Positions 8,895-50,800 of a DNA stretch of 58,453 nucleotides are shown here, in pieces. The position numbers and the translations under genes were made by a program. The notes beneath the pieces are model-generated. The model was not told the DNA's origin and searched no databases. It saw nothing but the letters and a program-made list of their open reading frames with translations. Every line of letters begins with the position of its first letter. Position 1 is the stretch's first letter. Location of the stretch: IMG/VR virus record IMGVR_UViG_3300002835_000037, one strand, 5' to 3'. Source of the DNA: an uncultured virus (IMG/VR IMGVR_UViG_3300002835_000037) (Duplodnaviria > Heunggongvirae > Uroviricota > Caudoviricetes).

Positions 8895-9731
8895 TTATTT
8901 CTTTTTTATAAAGTTAGGGTTTTCTTTAACATGATTTATTACCGCAATAACTTCATCATATAAATAAGGCACTCGTACTGGCAAAACATCTTTTACTATA
9001 GGGTTACCATCCTCATCTTTTTTTGCAATAGGATATCCCCATTTATCAACGCCTTCTGTTTCAAAAGTAATATGATGAATAACTATATTTCCAGGAAGCA
9101 TTTTAGGATTGTGCTTTAATATAATATACATATAAATACTCAATTGTAAAGCATAGTGATTAAAATGACAATCATCCAAATTAGAAACTGGATGGAGCAT
9201 CTTCTCTGAGATACCCTCCCAGTTCTTGAATGACTCCATCTTAATTTCTTTATTTGTTTTGTAATCAATAATATTAACTCTTCCGTTTACTACTTCAACT
9301 AAATCTGATTGACCGCAAATACCCGCAGATTTTAAATAAACCATGTGCTCTGGATAAACCCCTGGTTCAAGTTTTTGAGAAGGAGCATGCTTAATACCTT
9401 CTTTCAATGGTAAAGGTTTAAATACAGGTACAGTTGCACCTTCTCTTTCTATTGAAGCTAATGAACATATATCATCCTCTCTTTGGTTATGATACCAAGT
9501 TCCTAGATCTGTAGCTCTCTTAGCTTCATTAACCCATATTTCCTGAATTAGTTTAGGATCTATACCATACCATTTAGATTTAGAATTTTTACTTACCTTT
9601 TCTGAAGTTTTTTTAGCATCAAATGGTTTCTTTAAAGAGGATACCACAGTAGTTACACTATACCAAACAATATCTTGTTCAGCATCTAAACTATTGTAAC
9701 TGTGATCAATTGCATTAAATATTATACTCAT
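8895..9731 (-). CDS. PD-(D/E)XK nuclease
   Basis: GTWYH, GQSDLV...IIDYKT, YALQLSIY motifs. Confidence 0.8.
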   Translation of the reverse strand: MSIIFNAIDHSYNSLDAEQDIVWYSVTTVVSSLKKPFDAKKTSEKVSKNSKSKWYGIDPKLIQEIWVNEAKRATDLGTWYHNQREDDICSLASIEREGATVPVFKPLPLKEGIKHAPSQKLEPGVYPEHMVYLKSAGICGQSDLVEVVNGRVNIIDYKTNKEIKMESFKNWEGISEKMLHPVSNLDDCHFNHYALQLSIYMYIILKHNPKMLPGNIVIHHITFETEGVDKWGYPIAKKDEDGNPIVKDVLPVRVPYLYDEVIAVINHVKENPNFIKKK

Positions 9732-10021
9732 AAGTTATTTATTTTATCTTCTTCCTCTTCTGACATTACAGCACTCCATTTACCTAAAGGACATTCTGTA
9801 GATAAGGATCTAGTTTTAAACGCAAGTGAACATCCACACTCATCACAGCAAGGAGCTGTTTTTGGAACTGCACATTTGGTACCTTTACTAGGACATACCT
9901 CACATACATTCATTCTTACTCTGGATATAGATTCTACATATTCATCTCTTATTACAGCATTTGTAATACCCTCTAAGATTTGATTTCTATTATTCCATAT
10001 CTTTTTGAGACTGTTTTTCAT
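9728..10021 (-). CDS. Small Cys-rich (Zn-binding) protein
   Basis: CxxC...CCxxCGC...CPLGKW; start at ATG 10021 preferred. Confidence 0.7.
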   Translation of the reverse strand: MKNSLKKIWNNRNQILEGITNAVIRDEYVESISRVRMNVCEVCPSKGTKCAVPKTAPCCDECGCSLAFKTRSLSTECPLGKWSAVMSEEEEDKINNL

Positions 10022-10376
10022 ACTTGTCTTTTTTAAATTCTTGTTTTTTAAATTCTTTTTCAATCAACTTCAAGTTAAGCTTTTCTAAAGCTTCTACTTT
10101 TTCCTCAAGCATTTTTTTATTGTAATATGCTTTGAATGTAGAAGTATCATGGGAACTTAATGCTTTTGTATATCGATCAATAGATTTTCTTACTAAACCA
10201 GGCTTAGCAACAAATTGACCTAACCCTTCTACATTAATCCGAGGATGTGACAAATTTGTAATTTCAGTTCTTAAGCTTTTATAAAATGACTGTATTAAAT
10301 CTTCTACCAACTCAGCAGGGATATCAAATTCTTCTGCTAATTCTTTGTAAAGCTCATTAGATTTTTTAGGAATCAC
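9990..10376 (-). CDS. HU/IHF-like DNA-binding protein
   Basis: ELYKELAEE...INVEGLGQF pattern. Confidence 0.65.
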   Translation of the reverse strand: MIPKKSNELYKELAEEFDIPAELVEDLIQSFYKSLRTEITNLSHPRINVEGLGQFVAKPGLVRKSIDRYTKALSSHDTSTFKAYYNKKMLEEKVEALEKLNLKLIEKEFKKQEFKKDKYEKQSQKDME

Positions 10377-11015: not shown

Positions 11016-11133
11016 TTTTATATATTTAAAGTTTATGCAAATATATAATAAAAGTTTAAACTGAAAATATTTAAATTAAAAAAGGCTCCCTTTTGGAAGC
11101 CTTGCACATAGTTAGTTTAAGAATCTACTTTTA

Positions 11134-11292
11134 CTATCTATTCTTAATTGTAAAATTTAGTATACTGAGTGAATAAAAATTTCTAGACACGTCTATATCT
11201 ATACTTACTATATCAATGTAAGAAAGTCTAACTCTTATCATGAGTTTATCCCATTGTTTTCTGGAAGTTTTCCAATTATTTCTAAATTTCAT
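11134..11292 (-). CDS. Small hypothetical protein (52 aa) ending the lysis cassette
   Basis: Hand-translated MKFRNNWKTSRKQWDKLMIRVRLSYIDI...; ATGA overlap with the upstream gene. Confidence 0.6.
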   Translation of the reverse strand: MKFRNNWKTSRKQWDKLMIRVRLSYIDIVSIDIDVSRNFYSLSILNFTIKNR

Positions 11293-12098
11293 ACAATGTC
11301 GTTTGATTCAATTAATGTATATGTAAAGTTGTTTCCATGTACAGCTTTTGCTCTACGGCAGATTGCCATAAACTCTTCAAAGTCTGCAGATTTTTTAAAT
11401 ACCTGACATCCTTCAGACCAGTTCTCTACAAATGTTGAATCTGCTCCAGCTTTGTGAATGTTAATTCCAAACAATCCTTCTTGTATTGACTTCTCATCAT
11501 ATACCATATCTTTGTTTGGATCACGGAAAACTTTAACTGGTTTGTTTTGTCCTAGTGCTTCATACTTACCTGCATGAAGTCTCATGATGTGAGAGTTGAT
11601 ATACTGACCCTCAACTAATCTAGCTACACCTGCTTTATTTCCGTACTGCATAACACCTTTCGTTCCTGGATCTGTGGTTGCTGGCCAACTATGAAAATGC
11701 TCTACACCATCAACTGTATAAGTTAAAGTCAAATAATCATCAAATAAGTTAGTTACTTTTTGACCTGTAGAAGAGTTACGTACTCCTATAATATTAAGCA
11801 TTAAGTCTTTACCTTCAAACCACTTGTAACCTTTGGATGCTACTGCAGTTTTTACTTGAGCTGCAGTATATTTAGTAGCAACTGCTGGTTTAGAAACTAC
11901 AGGTTTACTATCTACAGTAATACCCATCTTAGCTAATGTAGCAGGTCCTACAACTCCATCTGGAGTAAGACCATGTTTTTTTTGAAACTCAATAACAGCA
12001 GCTTCTGTTTTTGGTCCAAAGTTTCCTATTTGTTCTACACCTAATACTGCCTGAATTTTCTTAACAGTATCATTGTTGTCTCCTTTTTTAAGTACCAT
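11289..12098 (-). CDS. Peptidoglycan-binding domain + putative cell-wall enzyme domain
   Basis: N-terminal PG_binding_1 (FGPKTEAAV..FQ..GL.PDGVVGPAT); C-terminal INIH...SEGC. Confidence 0.75.
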   Translation of the reverse strand: MVLKKGDNNDTVKKIQAVLGVEQIGNFGPKTEAAVIEFQKKHGLTPDGVVGPATLAKMGITVDSKPVVSKPAVATKYTAAQVKTAVASKGYKWFEGKDLMLNIIGVRNSSTGQKVTNLFDDYLTLTYTVDGVEHFHSWPATTDPGTKGVMQYGNKAGVARLVEGQYINSHIMRLHAGKYEALGQNKPVKVFRDPNKDMVYDEKSIQEGLFGINIHKAGADSTFVENWSEGCQVFKKSADFEEFMAICRRAKAVHGNNFTYTLIESNDIV

Positions 12099-12109
12099 AA
12101 CTATTCTAT

Positions 12110-12568
12110 TTATTTTTTAAAGTATAAGTTTGCTTCTGCCTCTCTTCTTCTCACAAGACCTTTTAATGTTTTACCTCCAGCTTTAACCCATTTCATAAAT
12201 TCTAATCTGATTGATTCGTCTTCTGGATTAGCATTAACCTTTTTCAATAGGGTTGATGACTTTAGATTCCCCGGGCCTAAATTATAAGCAAATGATACTA
12301 GAGCATCGAACTGATTCTGATTGATATCATCACGGCAATATGAATCTACATATTGCTCAAAACTGACAAGCATACTTTGTAATAGTTCCGTACCGCGTGC
12401 TTCAGTGATTGTAGCATCTGCCATTGTTACTTTTTTACCGCCTGGGTAAAATGTTGCTCCATACCCAATGGTTGGAATACCTGCAGGACATTTGTAAGGA
12501 GTTCCTCTAAATCCTTCAAAAGCTTTAATCATATCAATTCCAGCCGTGCCTGTTTTTGTAATTTTCAT
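12110..12568 (-). CDS. Endolysin, GH24 lysozyme
   Basis: FEG...Y.CPAG.PTIGYG, NQNQFDALVSFAYN.G, GLVRRREAE. Confidence 0.92.
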   Translation of the reverse strand: MKITKTGTAGIDMIKAFEGFRGTPYKCPAGIPTIGYGATFYPGGKKVTMADATITEARGTELLQSMLVSFEQYVDSYCRDDINQNQFDALVSFAYNLGPGNLKSSTLLKKVNANPEDESIRLEFMKWVKAGGKTLKGLVRRREAEANLYFKK

Positions 12569-12574
12569 ATCCTT

Positions 12575-13690
12575 TTATTTTTTTTCTTTACTGCCTTCTT
12601 GCGTAGCATACTTGATACCCATGATTGTGCCGACTATTGAAAAGGCATTTGTTAATAATACACTAAACATATTACTCCATGTTGATCCAATGATTTGAGT
12701 ATCTTGATTTGTTATAATTGCAGCCCAGTATAGTACAGTTGTTATAACCCCTACTCCAACTATAACAGCCAACGCAACTTTGACAATGATTTTAATCAGC
12801 TCACTTTGGCTTTTTTTCATCATTACATCTAAGTCATTCAGAGCTGCATCTTTTTCTATCTCAATTGCATTCTTAAGCTTTTGTGAGTTATCAAGTTCTA
12901 CCTGTAAATTTGTTGTTAAGTCGTCTATTTTCTTCTTATTGTTTACAGCCTCAGTGACATCAGTTGCAATTTTAACTACATCGGTGATGTTTCCTTTACT
13001 GTCCATTACAGGATTATAAGATGCTTGCAAGTAAACAGTAGATCCATCTACTTTTCTTCTTTCAAATATTCCATCAAAGAACTTACCCTTTTTCAGACTT
13101 TCCCAAAACTTAGCATATTCATCAGATTTAGAATACTCGTAGCTAACAAAAACACTGTGGTGTTTACCAATGACTTTACTTTTTTCATTGGTTTTATAAC
13201 CCATAGTTTCTAAGAATATAGAATTAACTTCTGTTATAAAACCCTCAATATTAAAACTAATAAGAGCTGTACTTCTGTTAATGGCATCTATTTGTTTCTT
13301 ACTATTGACAATTGCACTAATGTCAGTAGCAATCTTCATTACTTTGGTGATCTTACCATCCTCATTTAAAATAGGATTATAAGTTGCTTGAAGATTAATA
13401 AGACTTCCATCCTTTCTTCTTCTCTCAAATTCTCCAGTGTAATACTTACCACTTCTTAGGATATCCCAAAACTTCTCATATTCAAGTGATCTTGAGTAAT
13501 CATCACATACAAAGATGCTATGATGTTTACCAATGATATCATCATGGTTGCCTTTACCATAACCCATTGCTTCCAAAAAAATGTCATTGACCCCTAGTAT
13601 AATACCAGCAAGGTCAAAGTAGATAATAGCATTACTTCTATTAATGGCTTCTAGTCTACTTAGTAACTCTTCTTTTGGGAGATTTTTCAC
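12575..13690 (-). CDS. Tandem PAS-PAC domain membrane protein (no MCP or kinase output domain)
   Basis: Two repeats AINRS.A.I.F...IGKHHS.FV...FW..L..G....G.FERR..DGS...LQA.YNP; coiled coil; two C-terminal hydrophobic helices; GTG start. Confidence 0.85.
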   Translation of the reverse strand: MKNLPKEELLSRLEAINRSNAIIYFDLAGIILGVNDIFLEAMGYGKGNHDDIIGKHHSIFVCDDYSRSLEYEKFWDILRSGKYYTGEFERRRKDGSLINLQATYNPILNEDGKITKVMKIATDISAIVNSKKQIDAINRSTALISFNIEGFITEVNSIFLETMGYKTNEKSKVIGKHHSVFVSYEYSKSDEYAKFWESLKKGKFFDGIFERRKVDGSTVYLQASYNPVMDSKGNITDVVKIATDVTEAVNNKKKIDDLTTNLQVELDNSQKLKNAIEIEKDAALNDLDVMMKKSQSELIKIIVKVALAVIVGVGVITTVLYWAAIITNQDTQIIGSTWSNMFSVLLTNAFSIVGTIMGIKYATQEGSKEKK

Positions 13691-13699
13691 TGCAAGTTA

Positions 13700-13999
13700 T
13701 TATTTCTTGAACTTTTTAAGCCAAACTTTAGATATCAAATTACCTGCTATTTTCAATAAAGGATTTTGAGCATCAACTGTTACAGTAGTACCTTCTTCAG
13801 TTTTAACTACATTAACATCTAATTTTTCACTATCTAGTTTGAATTCTTTTTTTTCTTCAGTTGCATGAACTTCTACATCAACCTTTGGAGTGTCAATTAC
13901 AACATCAACATTTTTTCCTTCTTTCTTTACTTTAGCAGTGACTTTTTTGGTTTTTACTTCAACCTCAATGTCTTTTACTTTTACTTCTTTCTTAGCCAT
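13700..13999 (-). CDS. Lys/Val/Glu-rich hypothetical protein in the lysis cassette
   Basis: 99 aa ORF, co-oriented and tightly packed. Confidence 0.65.
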   Translation of the reverse strand: MAKKEVKVKDIEVEVKTKKVTAKVKKEGKNVDVVIDTPKVDVEVHATEEKKEFKLDSEKLDVNVVKTEEGTTVTVDAQNPLLKIAGNLISKVWLKKFKK

Positions 14000-14010
14000 T
14001 TTTATTTAAT

Positions 14011-14250
14011 TTAGGGATTTACAATTTCTTCTTCTTTCTTGTCTTCAACAGTTAACTGTGAAGTTGCTACAATAGTAGCACTTACTGTTGCTAAATAAGT
14101 TGCAGTAGTAATTACTGCAGCTGGTAATGTTACTGGTGCAGCAATAATAATTCCTGCTACAGTTCCTGTAATAATAGCCCATCTTTGGACTCTTTTCCAA
14201 AACTCAGGTGTTTTAGCCTTCCATCTTTCTTTAAGGGTTTTCTCTTTCAT
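14011..14250 (-). CDS. Small two-TM holin-like protein
   Basis: RWKAKTPEFWKRVQ followed by two hydrophobic segments. Confidence 0.65.
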   Translation of the reverse strand: MKEKTLKERWKAKTPEFWKRVQRWAIITGTVAGIIIAAPVTLPAAVITTATYLATVSATIVATSQLTVEDKKEEEIVNP

Positions 14251-14779
14251 CTTTGATTGATTTTATTGGTTCATCTTTTACATACTGAGCTAGATATCTT
14301 AGTAGAGGATTATATTCTGTCCAACCCAGTCTTTTAAAATTTTCTAAATTTGATAAGAAAAGATTTATAATTATATAGTTATAGAATCCATAATGCAGCC
14401 ATTCATAGATATTAAAGGTAACTCCAAACACTGGTTTAATCGGAATATTTTCAGCTAATGCATGTGATACACCAATCATTAACATATATACAAACAATTT
14501 AAACCATCCTTTACCGAAAAGTTCTGAATCAAATTTTAAACCTTCTTTTCTGGAAGCTTTAAGACCTGTATAAAACTCTAATATAAAAAGTAAAAGAATA
14601 CCTATACCAACAGGCAATACAATACCAAAAACAGAATTAAAATAATAAGCAATTCCTGCAAAAAAAGCACTTATAATTGTTATAGTGCTGGAAGCTTCTG
14701 GATGAAATGCACTGTTTATAAAATGTGTTGTATCACTGTATCCTGCAGCAAAAACTAATTTGTTAAGTATTGTTTTCAT
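14231..14779 (-). CDS. Holin (phage holin family 4-like)
   Basis: Several TMs; EFYTGLKAS...S..FGKG..KLFVY...SNLENFKRLG. Confidence 0.75.
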   Translation of the reverse strand: MKTILNKLVFAAGYSDTTHFINSAFHPEASSTITIISAFFAGIAYYFNSVFGIVLPVGIGILLLFILEFYTGLKASRKEGLKFDSELFGKGWFKLFVYMLMIGVSHALAENIPIKPVFGVTFNIYEWLHYGFYNYIIINLFLSNLENFKRLGWTEYNPLLRYLAQYVKDEPIKSIKDERENP

Positions 14780-14832
14780 TAGGTTAATAATATAAGTATT
14801 AATGCTTTATTATTGCTGTCGGTTTATTTTGG

Positions 14833-15105
14833 TTAATCAATTTTAAATTTTTGCATACCTTCAATAACTCTTTCCATAAGATTTGCTTCTCCCTCATAGT
14901 TAAGATTTTGAGCAGGAATTTTTTCAAGCAGATAATCAAATCCAAATTTAGCATCATCAGATTGAAATCTGCACATTACAGATATTGCTATATCTAAAAC
15001 ATGTACCTGAATACTATTCTGATCAGGTGTAACATTAGGATCTATTGTGTTAAAACCCAAGGTTGGATCCTCACAAGGGAAAAAATATGTTCCTAGTACT
15101 TTCAT
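14833..15105 (-). CDS. Hypothetical protein
   Basis: 90 aa; TAATG overlap with the upstream gene. Confidence 0.65.
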   Translation of the reverse strand: MKVLGTYFFPCEDPTLGFNTIDPNVTPDQNSIQVHVLDIAISVMCRFQSDDAKFGFDYLLEKIPAQNLNYEGEANLMERVIEGMQKFKID

Positions 15106-19494: not shown

Positions 19495-20121
19495 TTATTC
19501 ATTATCATAAAACATATTCTCTGTATCTTCAGTACCCCACTTAGTATGACTTTCACAATGATAAAACTTCAGATTGAGTTTATAATCCGGAATAGTTTTA
19601 AAAGGTTCTGATACCATGCTAGGTTCATTCCATAGGATCCTATTATTAGGATATATGCAAAAATGCCCTGAATCTAGTTCTATAACATGACCCATCTTAT
19701 GTTGACTAGGTTCTTCAGCATAAGAAGTAGATATAGTAGCACTACTGTCAGCATTCCAATCAATAGTAAATCTATACCGGCCTTCAACTTTCTCTTTGTT
19801 TTTTAAATAGACCTGGCACCTTTTTCCTTTAAGGAACATGAACTGGGTTACACTAGGACTATAAGAAAAGCAATCCCATAGCTGCAGTATATGAAAATCA
19901 ATGTGCGGGGCTTCAGGTTGCTCAAAAGGTACTAGAGCTGATACAGGTATCTTATCATAAATAGCACCTATATCAGTCATCACCACAAACAAAGCCGCTG
20001 TTCCCTGCAGACTCTTAATAGCAAAAGCCGTCCCCTCAACTAACTCCCCGTGGTGAGCTTCTAGATTATAAAGATACTCCTTCCTAATATAACACTCTAT
20101 AGGGGGGATATTAATATTCAT
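19495..20121 (-). CDS. Hypothetical phage protein
   Basis: Likely start MNINIPP at 20121; TATATTTG element upstream; LQLWDCFS, YPNNRILW. Confidence 0.7.
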   Translation of the reverse strand: MNINIPPIECYIRKEYLYNLEAHHGELVEGTAFAIKSLQGTAALFVVMTDIGAIYDKIPVSALVPFEQPEAPHIDFHILQLWDCFSYSPSVTQFMFLKGKRCQVYLKNKEKVEGRYRFTIDWNADSSATISTSYAEEPSQHKMGHVIELDSGHFCIYPNNRILWNEPSMVSEPFKTIPDYKLNLKFYHCESHTKWGTEDTENMFYDNE

Positions 20122-20189
20122 AAGATCAAGCTTTAATTTATACAAATATAAAAACTTTTTGGAATACTGGTACCACAATATATTAGAAG

Positions 20190-23259: not shown

Positions 23260-24015
23260 AGTAGTAATGCACCATTCCTGTTTCCCAATTCAAATATATT
23301 TAGTATATTTGTATTATGAAGATTTCTATATACACCTTGACAGATCCTAATACTAATAAAATTAGATATGTAGGACAAACAAATGATCCTAAAAGAAGAT
23401 TGAGTAGACATATAAACAACTCAAGAGCTTTTAAGGATAAAAGACATATCAGTAATTGGATAAGAAGTTTAACTTCTGCTCCAATAATGGATATAATTGA
23501 AGTTTGTGAGTATTCAATTAGAAATAGTAGAGAAAACTATTGGATTGATTACTATAAGAATCAAGGTTATGATTTATGCAACTCTTCTAATGGTGGTGCA
23601 GGTGCTGGTATTGGTAATAAGAATTGTTTAGGAAGAATTATGTCTGATAAAACAAAACAGAAAATAGCTAATGCAAACAAGAATAATACCAATGGATTAG
23701 GCAATAAAGGAGGAAAACCTTCAAAAACAATTTATCAATATGATAAAAATAAAATACCTATTGCTGTTTATAAATCAATACAAGATGCTGTTAAAGCTAC
23801 TGGATATAACAGAACAACAATAAGAAGAAATATTCAAAATATTAGTTCAAGTAAATTATTTATTTGGACTGATAAACCTTTGCTCTAACTCATCCAAGGG
23901 TGAGCAGTTGTAATAATATTGTAGTCCAGATTAGTTACAGTTAAGCACATTAGCTGTAATGAGTGGCAGCAACCGGAGCTGGAAACTATTATTACAACTG
24001 AGTGCAGAGGGTACT
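23260..24015 (+). ncRNA. Twister ribozyme interrupted by a GIY-YIG gene
   Basis: 5' AGUA-G-UAA-UGCA-CC (23260-23273); 3' CUCA-UCCAAGGG-UGAG (23889-23904), 14-bp P5, UGCA-GAGGG-UACU (24003-24015). Confidence 0.65.
23316..23888 (+). CDS. GIY-YIG homing endonuclease with NUMOD-type DNA-binding repeats
   Basis: SIYTL...RYVGQT...RRLSRH, E..WI; C-terminal IYQYD...YKSI..A. Confidence 0.85.
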   Translation: MKISIYTLTDPNTNKIRYVGQTNDPKRRLSRHINNSRAFKDKRHISNWIRSLTSAPIMDIIEVCEYSIRNSRENYWIDYYKNQGYDLCNSSNGGAGAGIGNKNCLGRIMSDKTKQKIANANKNNTNGLGNKGGKPSKTIYQYDKNKIPIAVYKSIQDAVKATGYNRTTIRRNIQNISSSKLFIWTDKPLL

Positions 24016-46089: not shown

Positions 46090-46506
46090 ATGAGTAAAAT
46101 AATTTTTGACAAAGAAGAAACAAAGAATCTGATTAATATGCTTAGATCTTCAGATGCTGATAATCATACTATAGCATTTGAAGCATTAAAAAATGTAAAT
46201 ATACAAAAATACATAGGAGAATTAATTGTAATGTATAAGTTTAGCGGTCATTCTAAAAATACTTGGTCTGAACAGTGTCCTAATGTTTTTAAGAAACTTG
46301 AAGAAGTTATAGTTAGTAAAGGAGGTGTATTAGAAAGCCTGACAAGCCCGCAAACATTAGCAGTACTTACAAAAGTAGTAGGATCTTCTAACTCAATTGA
46401 ACTGTTTATGGAGTATTTTGTAAAAAATATGACGAATGTTCTTGAAGGTATAGGTTATCCTATTGATAAATTTGAAATAACCATTAAACTAAAAGACAAT
46501 GGATAA
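46090..46506 (+). CDS. Hypothetical protein
   Basis: 138 aa. Confidence 0.7.
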   Translation: MSKIIFDKEETKNLINMLRSSDADNHTIAFEALKNVNIQKYIGELIVMYKFSGHSKNTWSEQCPNVFKKLEEVIVSKGGVLESLTSPQTLAVLTKVVGSSNSIELFMEYFVKNMTNVLEGIGYPIDKFEITIKLKDNG

Positions 46507-47803
46507 ACAACAAAGTCTTAGTAAAACGAGTAAAGAGCTAATGTTGAAAGAGCCCTATTATGGGTTCTTTCTCATTATGCTTAATAAAATATGGGACAGT
46601 AAAAGAGTTCCTACAGCAGGTGTAAGTAAGAATGGTATTAATTATCAACTTGCTATTAATCCTAGCTTTTGGGAAAGTCTGAATGATAATCATAGACTTG
46701 GATTATTGAAGCATGAATTGCTTCATATTGCATTTGGACATCTTACAACATTCTTTAAGTTTACTGATAAGAAACTTGCAAATGTTGCAATGGATATGGA
46801 AATCAATCAGTATATTGATAAATCTTGGCTTCCGGGCGGAAATTATACTAAAGAAGAGTTTGATACTCTTAAAGCAAGTATAATGTCTGAATTAGAGAAT
46901 GCTAAGCAAAATAATGCTACTGAGGAAGAGTTACAAATTATTGCAAGTAAACTTCCTCCTAGAGGTATTATGATTGAAGATTATGAGGAATTAAATCTTG
47001 ACTTAAAAGCTGGCTCTAGATACTACTATGATAAACTAAAGCAACTTCAGGACAAAAAAGATCAAGAAGGTAGTTCTGGAAGTTCAGCAATGGACCAACT
47101 TCTTGATGACATAGCAAACGGTGATGTTCCTGATCATAGCACATGGGATGAGTTTGAAAACATTACAGAAGCAGAACAAAAACTGATTGACAAGCAATTG
47201 CAGAAAGTTTTATCCGATGCTAAAGAGCAAACTGTAAAGAAAAGAGGAACAGTCCCTGGTGAAATAGAAGGTGTTATCATTATAGAGGAGATTGTTCCTC
47301 CAAAATTTGACTGGAGAGGTTTTATCAGAAGATTTACAGGAGTAAGTACTAAAGTGTTTACTAAGAAAATCAGAAGAAAAGAAAACCGTAGGTTTGAAGC
47401 TAATCCCGGTCTTAAAGTAAAAATGAGACAACATATGTTGTTAGCCATTGATACTTCAGGATCTGTAAGTGATGATGAGCTTAAAGAATTTATGAGTGAA
47501 ATCTACCATATTTACAAGTGTGGTGTTGATATTACTATTGTACAATGTGATACAAGAATCAGATCAATTGAACCTTACAAAGGTAAATTTGAAATGGTAG
47601 TGCAAGGTAGGGGAGGAACTGAGTTTGACCCTGTCCTAGAGTATTTTAATGAAAACCAAAAGAAATATACTAGCCTGGTATATTTTACTGACGGTGAATG
47701 TTGGACACATGTAAAACCAAAAGGAAATGTTCTTTGGGTTATATCCGAAAGATCACAAATGAATAATGATCTTCCTGGAAAAGTTATTAAATTAGAATTA
47801 TAA
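46499..47803 (+). CDS. Metallopeptidase-like (HExxH) + vWA domain protein (DUF2201-type)
   Basis: KHELLH; DTSGS MIDAS; GRGGTEF; YFTDG. Confidence 0.85.
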   Translation: MDKQQSLSKTSKELMLKEPYYGFFLIMLNKIWDSKRVPTAGVSKNGINYQLAINPSFWESLNDNHRLGLLKHELLHIAFGHLTTFFKFTDKKLANVAMDMEINQYIDKSWLPGGNYTKEEFDTLKASIMSELENAKQNNATEEELQIIASKLPPRGIMIEDYEELNLDLKAGSRYYYDKLKQLQDKKDQEGSSGSSAMDQLLDDIANGDVPDHSTWDEFENITEAEQKLIDKQLQKVLSDAKEQTVKKRGTVPGEIEGVIIIEEIVPPKFDWRGFIRRFTGVSTKVFTKKIRRKENRRFEANPGLKVKMRQHMLLAIDTSGSVSDDELKEFMSEIYHIYKCGVDITIVQCDTRIRSIEPYKGKFEMVVQGRGGTEFDPVLEYFNENQKKYTSLVYFTDGECWTHVKPKGNVLWVISERSQMNNDLPGKVIKLEL

Positions 47804-47814
47804 AAAAAAGAAGT

Positions 47815-50800
47815 ATGAGTCAAGTACAATTAAACGTTGAAGAGTTAAAGGATTTTATTAAGCATATGGTTAAGAATAACCAACACATTCAGTCTGAAGG
47901 AAAAGTTCCTGTGGCAGTGAACATTGAAGGTGATGCTGGGCTTAATTCAAAATAAATGAGTATATTTGTAACATGAAGAAATTAATTTCAGAGTGTTTAC
48001 ACAAAGACTTAAATCAAAAGTGTGGTATTTACAAACTTACTTGTAATGAGCACAGTTATATTGGTAGCAGTATTAATATTTATTATAGGTTGAAAAGACA
48101 TATATCAGATTTGCTAAAAAATAAGCATGCAAATAAGTATATGCAAAATGCTTTTAATAAATATGGAAAGGATAGTTTTATATTTGAAGTAATAGAAGAA
48201 TGTAATAGAGATGTGTTAATTAAAACAGAATCCTATTATATAGAATCTATGTCTCCGGACTTAAACTTTATTCAAAATCCTGTTGCAATGATCCACAGTA
48301 ATGAAACATTACTTAGGATTTCTGCAACATTAAAAGAAGCTTATGCTTCTAAAAGAATAAAAAATCCTATTTCTAAAACTGTTCATCAATATAATATAAA
48401 TGGTTTTTATCTTAAATCTTATGAATCCTGTGCTGAAGCAGAAAAACAATTGAACTTACCAAAAGGAAAAGTTTCAAGAGTAGCTTCAGGAAAAGGATTT
48501 TCTTGTAAAAACTATAGATGGAGTTATGAATTAAAAAATAAACTTGGAGAATCTGTTATTAAACCAGATACAACAAAAAAAGTTTATGTATATGATGAGA
48601 ACAACAACTTAGTTCAAGAATGGCAAAGAGTGGGTAATGTAGCTAGTAATCTAGGTATTAGCTCATCTGCAATGTCTACAAGAATTAAAAAAGGTAATTA
48701 CTATGATGGTTTAAGATATTCATTTAACCCAGGTCCAGGGTAAAAATTGGGTGAATTGCTGGGAGTTCCTAAAGCTTTGTTAGCTACAACATAACCGGAA
48801 ATGGTAAGTGTGAATGCTTGAAAATAACAAAGATGTCCTAATGGATAATCAGCAGCCAAGTCTAGATCTAAATGGTCTGGAAAGGTTCAACGACTAGGTA
48901 TTGAAACTATGTAAATAGAATATAATATACCCAAGAGTGCCCAACACCAAGTAATTGGTGAAGATATAGTCTGAACTATAGTGAAAGCTATAGAAACAAG
49001 GATAAAGAGCCTTGTGATAACAAAATGTGGAAAAACAAGTGCAATTATGCAGTTGGGTAAAGAATTGCAAATGGATGTTGTAAAGTTGAATTTATCTCAA
49101 CTTGAAGAATTAGGTGACTTAGTTGGGTTTCCTGTAAAAGAATTTCAGATACAAAATGCAGAAGGTAAAACTACCTGGATTAATGAATCTCAGATATCTG
49201 CAGCTAGTGCGAAAGGTTATAAGGTTGTTGGAAAAAGAATGTCACATGCTGCTCCTGAATGGATTCAGGGTAAAGGTGAAGGTGGTTTCTTAATCTTAGA
49301 TGACTATACTCGTGCGGATTAACAAAATATGCAGTCTAGTAGTGTTAGTGTGAATAATTTAATTATCTTTGTGATATGGAAAAATTAAACACACAAACTC
49401 TTAAGACCGCATTAAAGAGTATAGGAATCTATAAAATTAAAATTAATGATAAAGAGTACATTGGTAGCTCTTGTAATATTGGTCAAAGATTAAAACATCA
49501 TTTATGGTCTCTTGAAAATTTAAAACACCATAATAGAACAATGCAGAATTTATACAACAAGTATAGTAAAGAAGAAATTTACTTTGAAGTTGTAGAAGAG
49601 TGTTCAGATGAAGTTTTAATTGAGAGAGAAGCTTATTATATTAGCACACTTAATCCATATATAAATCATATACTAGATCCACAAACTCTAGTCAGGGATG
49701 ATGTATGTAAACAAAGGATAAGTGATACTAAGAAAAAAGCTTATGCAAATGGTCTAAAACCTCACAATCTTAAAGCAGTACATAAATATTCACTTGATAA
49801 AGGTGAGTATTTAGAAAGTTTTGATTCTCTTACAGCTGCTGCTAAATCTATTAATGCTAAAAGTATTAATAGTATAAAAGCAGTATGTAATAGTAAGCAA
49901 ACTTCTGCAGGAGGTTATGTTTGGTCTTATAATAAAGTTAATCTAGTTTTTTCTAGAGATAAAAAATATAAGTTAGAACCAGTGTTACAATTTACTATTG
50001 ATAATATTTTTATCAAAAAATGGGAGTCTATAACTGAAGCAAGTAAAGAACTTGGTATCTCTAATATTAATAGAGCAATATCTAGAAATTTAACTGCTGG
50101 GGGTTATAGATGGTCTAAAAAGCATAAAGTGTTTGGTCCGCAATAAATCATGTGAATTCAGGGAAACTCCAGAGATGGACAATCCTGAGCCAAGCCTTAT
50201 AGGGATATAAGGAAGGTGCAACGACTAGTGTATGGAGTCTAGAACAGACAGTAAAACACCAAGAGCGCATGACACATAGAAATATGTGATGATATAGTCT
50301 GAACTGTACATATAATCTAAATGAAAGTACAGAATCTAAGGATAAAGAGCCTTAGAGTTAACAAAATGCAACGCTTTATGCAAGCAACAATGGAGATCCT
50401 AGACAGACAAGAATATGTTTCTTGGAAGTTACCAAAGAACTGGCATGTACTTTTGACTACTAATCCAGACAATGGTGATTACAATGTAACTTCTCTGGAT
50501 GTAGCTCAGAAGACTAGATTTATCTCTGTAGAGTTAAAGTATGATTCTGATGTATGGGCTAAGTGGGCAGAGAAAGCAAGTATTGATGGTAGATGTATTA
50601 ACTTTATGTTGATGCATCCAGAATTGGTAACTCAAAGAGTTAATCCAAGATCTATCACTACATTCTTTAATGCAATTAGTTCTATTCCAAAGTTTGAAGA
50701 TAACTTACCTTTAATTCAAATGATTGGTGAGGGATCTGTTGGACCTGATTTTAGTTCTATGTTTACTATGTTCATTAATAACAAACTTGATAGAATTATT

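Follow-up and report, generated by a model that had tools for sequence, protein, structure and literature searches.

The timing of lysis sets the burst size and constitutes the main life-history choice of a lytic phage. To our knowledge, only few systems exist in which a phage adjusts this timing to a signal, namely the lysis inhibition of T4 and of ICP1, whose regulators read superinfection from outside the cell and bind one holin. Here, we describe a gene that, on balance, we are inclined to regard as an accessory, sensor-coupled regulator of the lysis step. It is located at positions 12575..13690 on the minus strand of a 58,453-nucleotide (nt) stretch of DNA from an uncultured virus (IMG/VR record IMGVR_UViG_3300002835_000037), in the following referred to as the window, and encodes a protein of 371 amino acids (aa; GTG start) in which two PAS domains are joined by a long helix to a predicted membrane hairpin. 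The original prediction, made from the letters of this DNA, had proposed a sensor-gated lysis system; the architecture and the linkage to lysis genes were borne out, whereas the redox cue that it also assumed and a kinship with holins are not supported.

Several described systems invite comparison. In T4, the holin T is accompanied by the antiholins RI (periplasmic) and RIII (cytoplasmic) (PMC11413866, PMC8385771). RI and RIII resemble the window protein in being phage accessory factors for signal-dependent lysis timing that are optional for lysis itself and come in addition to holin and endolysin; they differ in that RI senses in the periplasm and binds one cognate holin, whereas the sensor of the window is predicted to be cytoplasmic, is of the PAS type, and is fused to its own hairpin. 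No sequence similarity connects the T4 system with the window protein, the hairpin of which remains invariant beside different holins. A second group comprises the class II holins and pinholins, for example, the two-helix pinholin S21 68 of phage 21 and its antiholin form S21 71. They share with the window protein the N-in/C-in topology and a small/polar face on helix 2, whereas the window protein differs by about 300 cytoplasmic residues preceding helix 1, by the lack of a match to any holin family, and by being optional beside a PF05105 holin. In staphylococci, LytSR together with CidAB/LrgAB provides sensor input to holin- and antiholin-like membrane proteins by way of two-component transcriptional control; that system is cellular and transcriptional, whereas sensor and membrane part form one polypeptide in the window.

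The phage counterpart closest in setting is found in Cellulophaga phage phi14:2, where g078, named 'PAS fold protein', overlaps and directly precedes the GH19 endolysin gene g077 (NC_021806). Like the window protein, g078 is a membrane-anchored PAS protein beside an endolysin, here in a cultured crAss-like (Crassvirales) phage of Bacteroidota. At 209 aa, it shows the opposite build, with an N-terminal membrane helix, a coil, and a single C-terminal PAS domain, and pairwise comparison with the window protein revealed no detectable similarity (best E 5). Because of both the opposite build and the lack of detectable similarity, g078 is, as judged from these comparisons, an independent analogue and not a relative. 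It nonetheless makes phi14:2 a cultivable system with a PAS protein at the endolysin gene. In searches of the openly accessible full-text literature, we found no description of a PAS protein in a phage lysis cassette. The family of PAS-hairpin proteins to which the window protein belongs is real and abundant, and no described family accounts for it.

Domain architecture and predicted structure

Within the 371-aa protein, Pfam detected only PAS families: PAS_3 (E 2.8e-25), PAS_9 (E 2.9e-20), and PAS (E 1.9e-14), each of which matches twice along the protein, and PAS_4 (E 2e-10), which matches a single stretch; bit scores clearly exceeded the curated cut-offs (88.8 vs. 25.6 for PAS_3 and 72.9 vs. 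27 for PAS_9). This search confirmed the expectation of two PAS repeats without the signaling domain of methyl-accepting chemotaxis proteins (MCPs) and without kinase or GGDEF domains. One source names the protein 'methyl-accepting chemotaxis protein', a name that was rejected since Pfam finds no MCP signaling domain and that stems from the PAS units, which are common to MCPs. PHROGs yielded no family for the whole 371-aa protein.

An AlphaFold2 model built on a 20-row alignment (mean predicted local distance difference test score, pLDDT, of 84.7) contains two PAS folds, each with a five-stranded antiparallel sheet and flanking helices, at pLDDT >90. PAS domain 1 covers residues 13-125 (13316..13654, minus strand, as for all parts of the protein), with the Pfam PAS_3 match over residues 33-120, and PAS domain 2 covers residues 138-250 (12941..13279), with the PAS_9 match over residues 148-247. 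The first domain ends in D-I-S and the second in D-V-T, a motif typical of the junction between a PAS core and its output helix. The two domains are followed by a continuous predicted helix (residues 246-327) that includes the cytoplasmic linker helix (residues 251-304; 12779..12940) as well as membrane helix 1 (residues 305-326; 12713..12778; mean hydropathy 2.44), after which the chain turns (residues 328-330) and enters a second helix (residues 331-363); in the sequence, the outer loop is very short (residues 327-332, TNQDTQ). Membrane helix 2 (residues 333-359; 12614..12694) is invariant and amphipathic according to conservation and hydrophobic moment (0.85 vs. 0.52 for helix 1, which varies more), and S336, N340, S343, T347, S351, G354, and G358 form a polar stripe along one of its faces. 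Because lysines flank both membrane helices on the cytoplasmic side, namely K292, K293, K300, and K304 before helix 1 and K360, K368, K370, and K371 after helix 2, the hairpin is read as N-in/C-in. The protein thus has two PAS domains that are predicted to be cytoplasmic, lack a signal peptide, and are joined by a long helix to an N-in/C-in hairpin. Two details of the earlier description held in part: a long helix with heptad-like invariant hydrophobic positions is present where a coiled coil had been proposed (the invariant linker residues are I255, L258, L262, L266, S269, A283, L284, and L287), but the model gives one single helix; and the supposedly basic tail does contain lysines, but is a mixed Lys/Glu segment and the least conserved part of the protein, with a ratio of nonsynonymous to synonymous substitution rates (dN/dS) of 0.71.

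Linkage to lysis genes across related loci

For the synteny analysis, 80 loci around relatives of the PAS protein, 70 around relatives of the window holin, and 80 around a natural one-PAS form of the protein were gathered. Neighbors were called as longest open reading frames (ORFs), giving 622 ORFs in 162 clusters, and 34 cluster representatives were named by Pfam and PHROGs. Viral contigs contributed 74 two-PAS and 50 one-PAS forms, in total 124 distinct coding sequences, of which 103 are flanked by two or more ORFs on either side. An endolysin occurs within one ORF of the PAS gene in 58/103 loci, within two in 96/103, and within three in 100/103; homologues thus lie beside lysis genes, as expected, with a linkage that persists despite the exchange of partners. 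Three loci lack an endolysin within ±3 ORFs, two being cut by the end of the locus and one (L040) representing a real exception with unrelated neighbors. In 87/103 loci, the surrounding ±3 ORFs include a PF05105 holin or a small membrane protein of one of two types, here termed u91 and tm79. Frequently, the PAS gene fits tightly between the genes of a small membrane protein and of the endolysin, either overlapping them or separated from them by a few bases. One-PAS and two-PAS forms share this neighborhood. Around the PAS gene, the endolysins are of five kinds (GH24, PG-binding/phrog_3000, Peptidase_M15_3, GH19, and Amidase_2), the PF05105 holins fall into three subfamilies, and gene order varies from locus to locus; it is this persistence through the exchange of holin and endolysin partners that gives the linkage its weight.

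The gene itself is optional. Among 46 distinct loci with the holin type of the window, the PAS gene is present in 5 and absent in 35 (with at least 2.5 kb of downstream sequence), while 6 are too short to tell. Since it is optional among loci with the same holin type, it would modulate lysis and not be required for it.

Two other functions may be considered in light of these data. First, the protein might not serve lysis timing at all but represent a late-expressed membrane sensor in an insertion-tolerant region, acting, for example, in superinfection exclusion, interference with host signaling, or control of host respiration. The optional nature of the gene and the mosaic character of the module, in which sugar-metabolism and ribonucleotide reductase genes adjoin the PAS gene in some loci, would suit such a role, and an invariant helix could fit a conserved host target. 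We nevertheless consider it rather unlikely, as the linkage to endolysins survives both the shuffling of gene order and the replacement of the enzymes (100/103 loci) and as the gene so often sits between a small membrane protein and the endolysin. Second, the protein might act on the endolysin or on envelope disruption, for instance, by holding the wall enzyme at the membrane and releasing it. Endolysins are found at ±1 ORF in 58/103 loci, which is about as often as u91 or tm79 (55/103) and far more often than the PF05105 holin (6/103). However, the neighboring enzymes are of five unrelated folds while the PAS protein hardly changes, which makes a specific enzyme contact unlikely, and the GH24 enzyme of the window has no membrane segment; this second function is hence very unlikely in our view.

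As a separate observation, u91 is a two-helix membrane protein of 76-91 aa and the commonest immediate neighbor of the PAS gene, on either side of it. It was recorded at L006:5999-6274 and in 46 other loci and is absent from the window; it has no Pfam or PHROG match and is not homologous to the hairpin.

Origin, forms, and selection

In the metagenome protein collection, close relatives are found at 83-100 % identity. The metagenome search returned 3963 clusters passing E 0.001, and the best 120 of these are all 87-95 % identical to the window protein and 362-379 aa long. When clustered at 50 %, the tail occurs on only three representatives (371 aa, 251 aa, and one fragment of 230 aa), while the other top matches are long cellular multi-PAS proteins that align over residues 6-305 at most with 27-47 % identity. 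With the tandem PAS units found in long sensor proteins of cells, the PAS pair itself shares 35-47 % identity, and eight shorter cellular matches that were read consist of serial copies of this PAS unit, with MCP-like segments at the end of three of them. The notion of a captured sensor is thereby upheld: the PAS pair looks to have been taken from cellular sensors, whereas the tail is peculiar to the phage family of the window. PAS1 and PAS2 are 54 % identical and thus closer to each other than either is to the cellular units.

In addition to the two-PAS protein, the one-PAS form of about 250 aa carries the same N-terminus and the same tail. Among 78 sampled viral loci with the hairpin motif, 71 hold complete ORFs, of which 53 are two-PAS, 17 one-PAS, and 1 truncated, and an exact-motif census of the hairpin turned up PAS fusions only. 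A metagenome protein of 279 aa (P0121) has an internal duplication that spans the end of PAS2 and the beginning of the linker helix. Along with the coexistence of one-PAS and two-PAS forms, this duplication suggests that the PAS repeat unit recombines. Several other candidates were set aside. Short hairpin proteins of 81-158 aa start inside the PAS or linker sequence of the complete gene and look like fragments or broken copies, and an internal start at Met291 was rejected because this residue is not conserved. Record MT836939 ('Bacteriophage sp.'), which is 43 % identical across the PAS pair, is a contig of high guanine-cytosine content with an ordinary MCP and a GGDEF-EAL protein and is not phage-like. 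In two Listeria phage records, the match is confined to a single PAS domain.

Selection was estimated as pooled pairwise dN/dS over 59 distinct protein sequences, with dS near saturation, so that the ratios are rough. The overall value of 0.08 (dS 0.84) is mirrored by PAS1 (0.077), PAS2 (0.081), the linker helix (0.082), and helix 1 (0.10), while residues 336-365 reach 0.013 (dS 0.90) and the high value of the tail mentioned above concerns the last six residues. Residues 330-363 are invariant or nearly so in all 59 sequences. Between one-PAS and two-PAS forms, block 336-365 is 99.7 % identical, compared to 74 % for the whole 121-aa tail. Within the coding sequences compared, these values show very strong purifying selection on the PAS gene.

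The possible cue

The nearest solved structures by sequence, profile, and fold are the redox sensor MmoS, Aer, NifL, and LOV domains as well as the heme sensors DosP and FixL. MmoS (PDB 3ewk) matches with E 3.2e-9 by sequence; the profile comparison reached E 1.6e-26 and Foldseek, with tandem PAS structures as its top matches, E 1.4e-16. Flavin PAS domains (MmoS, Aer, NifL, LOV) lead the sequence and profile lists, with heme-binding DosP among them. MmoS (3ewk), Aer (8dik), NifL (2gj3, 9qq6), and DosP (9bgv) have the same fold and are the closest sequence relatives of the PAS pair; in contrast to them, the window protein has no kinase, MCP, or cyclase output, its output being the membrane hairpin.

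These relatives had led to the expectation of redox or oxygen sensing. His57/His178 and Trp75/Trp196 indeed occupy the positions of a His and a Trp in MmoS and Aer, but both PAS domains of the window protein carry an Arg (Arg90/Arg211) where MmoS and Aer have Asn; these aligned positions are the flavin-contacting residues. Of the residue set of the Aer/NifL/MmoS type, His and Trp are thus kept while Asn is replaced by Arg, and other positions of the Aer helix differ as well, with the R-H-P-D stretch of Aer aligning with V-S-Y-E in PAS2. Owing to the replacement of the Asn, redox or oxygen sensing is not supported, even though PAS domains that bind flavin or heme are the nearest relatives. In the cellular homologues, too, the His-His pair, the Trp, and the Arg do not vary, which is why a ligand pocket in the PAS pair is likely. 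The ligand could be flavin, heme, or another molecule, among which these residues do not discriminate.

A proposed role in lysis timing

Gene linkage and architecture are the two lines of evidence that probably place the protein in lysis timing, and with modest confidence we favor the reading of the PAS protein as an accessory regulator that couples the lysis step to a sensor. According to the mechanism that we propose, the ligand or cofactor state of the PAS domains would shift the linker helix in the manner of PAS sensor kinases and would thus move membrane helix 1 and thereby alter the packing of the invariant amphipathic helix 2, which may pack with itself, with a holin, or with a component of the host membrane. 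The changed packing would then advance or delay the triggering of the holin and in this way set the time of lysis. As the hairpin is invariant while neighboring holins and endolysins are swapped, we think that its target is something that all cassettes share, for example, the energized membrane with its potential or else a host protein that is conserved, and favor this over one cognate holin.

A number of points weigh against this regulatory role. Searches of holin families in Pfam and PHROGs with the whole protein and with the tail (E up to 10) gave no match; the best PHROG match of the tail, phrog_1544, has no assigned function and covers linker and hairpin weakly (E 8.7e-4); and hhalign of the tail against six neighboring membrane-protein families gave probabilities of at most 1.2 %. 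That helix 2 stays invariant next to such diverse holins speaks against an antiholin specific for one partner, which would be the simplest holin-specific model. Regarding the linkage, the loci are mutually related and do not represent independent samples, their ORFs were named by way of longest-ORF calls and cluster representatives, and lysis modules are mosaic and gather accessory genes, so that adjacency alone could mislead. Finally, with dS near saturation, the dN/dS ratios are approximate.

The original prediction had further ascribed a holin- or antiholin-like topology to the C-terminal part. The likeness applies to the two helices with their N-in/C-in orientation, as known for class II holins, but does not extend to a holin family match or to homology with the neighboring proteins. 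Two membrane helices and a Lys/Glu tail are present, yet the protein comprises 371 aa with a cytoplasmic part of 300 residues. Searches with the tail alone gave no tblastn match among 50,697 phage records (E up to 5), and the best ESM Atlas hit was a viral 104-aa cluster at 0.76, which is below the threshold for a lead. A complex prediction for the holin and tm79 of the window, with the segment 246-371 of the PAS protein as partner, scored 0.00 without controls and speaks neither for nor against a contact. The protein was also considered as an i-spanin and rejected, since its N-terminus is a soluble PAS pair without signal or anchor and its membrane helices are C-terminal.

Might the PAS protein nevertheless form holes or depolarize the membrane itself, that is, act as a sensor-gated holin or pinholin in which helix 2 oligomerizes and the PAS domains hold it shut or open? 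The two-helix topology, the invariance of helix 2, its amphipathic character with a Ser/Thr/Asn/Gly stripe and a GxxxG motif, and the 16/103 loci in which none of the named membrane lysis proteins lies within four ORFs all speak for this. The collapse of the membrane potential triggers holins, and depolarization would also explain how the protein can work beside any of them. However, the gene is absent from 35/46 loci with the same holin type and hence cannot be their essential holin, a PF05105 holin is already encoded in the window, no holin family is matched, and 371 aa is far larger than known holins, which together render this explanation improbable. A related and equally doubtful idea is that of a holin-independent trigger, in which the PAS pair would read the metabolic state (redox, oxygen, light, or a metabolite) and, by way of the rigid helix, toggle helix 2 between a closed form and an oligomeric one that conducts ions, whereupon depolarization would fire any holin. 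If true, this would amount to a portable 'lyse now' or 'wait' module that fits any cassette, and it would explain the invariance of the hairpin amid exchanged holins and endolysins.

The lysis cassette of the window and its relatives

In the window, the predicted row of holin, small membrane protein, Lys-rich protein, PAS protein, GH24 enzyme, and peptidoglycan (PG)-binding protein, all on the minus strand, was confirmed in both order and tight spacing, with gaps of 6-11 nt and one 20-nt overlap. It begins with the 182-aa holin (14231..14779; PF05105 Phage_holin_4_1, E 1.7e-8), which overlaps by 20 nt with tm79 (14011..14250), a small membrane protein of 79 aa with a hydrophobic core that comes after the holin in 27 related neighbor sets. 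Next, after an 11-nt gap, lies the ORF of a Lys-rich 99-aa protein (13700..13999), kept after tm79 in 26 neighbor sets; its C-terminus is a basic amphipathic helix (…LLKIAGNLISKVWLKKFKK) and it is devoid of membrane segments. As the window shows no clear spanin pair, this protein could take the place of a spanin by acting on the membrane in the manner of a membrane-active peptide. The PAS gene follows after 9 nt and is itself followed, after 6 nt, by the gene for the GH24 endolysin (152 aa; 12110..12568; PF00959, E 7e-44; phrog_7 endolysin, E 1.3e-54) and, after 11 nt, by that for a second putative wall enzyme of 269 aa (11289..12098; PG_binding_1, PF01471, E 6.8e-14; phrog_3000, E 1.2e-32). 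An ORF of 52 aa (11134..11292), kept after endolysins in 23 neighbor sets, closes the row. Pfam and PHROGs gave no family match for tm79, the Lys-rich protein, or the 52-aa ORF. Beyond the row, a terminator-like hairpin with a nine-pair stem and a subsequent T run (11082..11103, minus strand) was identified as a consensus match. The tight spacing and the position of this terminator-like site, found only after the row, suggest that the cassette is one transcription unit. A promoter scan showed no excess over shuffles, and no RNA datasets are listed as covering positions 11200-14900 of the window.

Related cassettes hold further genes next to the PAS gene. These include a spanin-like protein of 158 aa with a lipobox-like signal and a C-terminal anchor, as in a unimolecular spanin, and spanin-like proteins of 85-153 aa with an N-terminal anchor and a coil (L007:1719-2195, L007:2192-2449, L209:1944-2405, and L162:6357-6890). 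In L058, L037, L035, L020, and their relatives, the PAS gene is preceded by sugar-nucleotide enzymes (a GT2 glycosyltransferase, epimerases, and UDP-glucose dehydrogenase) or by ribonucleotide reductase genes. Given that these preceding gene sets differ, the lysis module borders different auxiliary modules.

The phage, its host, and its occurrence

The window encodes a terminase, portal and head proteins, a primase, a helicase, a DNA polymerase, and several homing endonucleases. The terminase shares about 25 % identity with its counterparts in crAss-like phages and in Flavobacterium phage FpV4, and no near match to the window was found among the 50,697 phage records. The exact cassette sequence occurs in 20 metagenome runs from lakes or freshwater, the records of which date from 2016-2024 and thus point to recurrence over years, possibly from few campaigns. 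Based on the likeness of the terminase, the lake runs, and the lack of a near phage record, the phage is, by its sequence, an uncultured and distant crAss-like phage. The host probably belongs to the Bacteroidota, a weak lean since the four metagenome-assembled genome bins that hold relatives carry four inconsistent labels (Saprospira, Flavobacteriales, Ignavibacteria, and Saccharibacteria). No tRNA genes were found in the window.

Other genes of the window include three of the GIY-YIG homing endonuclease type in the replication module (23316-23888, 47973-48743, and 49376-50146, plus strand) along with a large HNH endonuclease gene (46499-47803, plus strand). A 227-aa protein (19495-20178, minus strand) matches phrog_3704, 'ferredoxin', in the category of auxiliary metabolic genes (E 5e-68), and a Cys-rich protein of 111 aa (9728-10063, minus strand; …CEVCPSKGTKCAVPKTAPCCDECGC…) matches phrog_13558, which has no assigned function, and is kept in related loci.

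Biological significance

If our reading of the PAS gene as a lysis regulator is true, the phage would read the inner state of its host through a cytoplasmic sensor that is fused to a membrane element of the lysis cassette. The family is very abundant in lake metagenomes, and its effect on the dynamics between phages and hosts in lakes could accordingly be large. Provided that it works as proposed, this small modular protein would represent a ready-made switch from signal to lysis.

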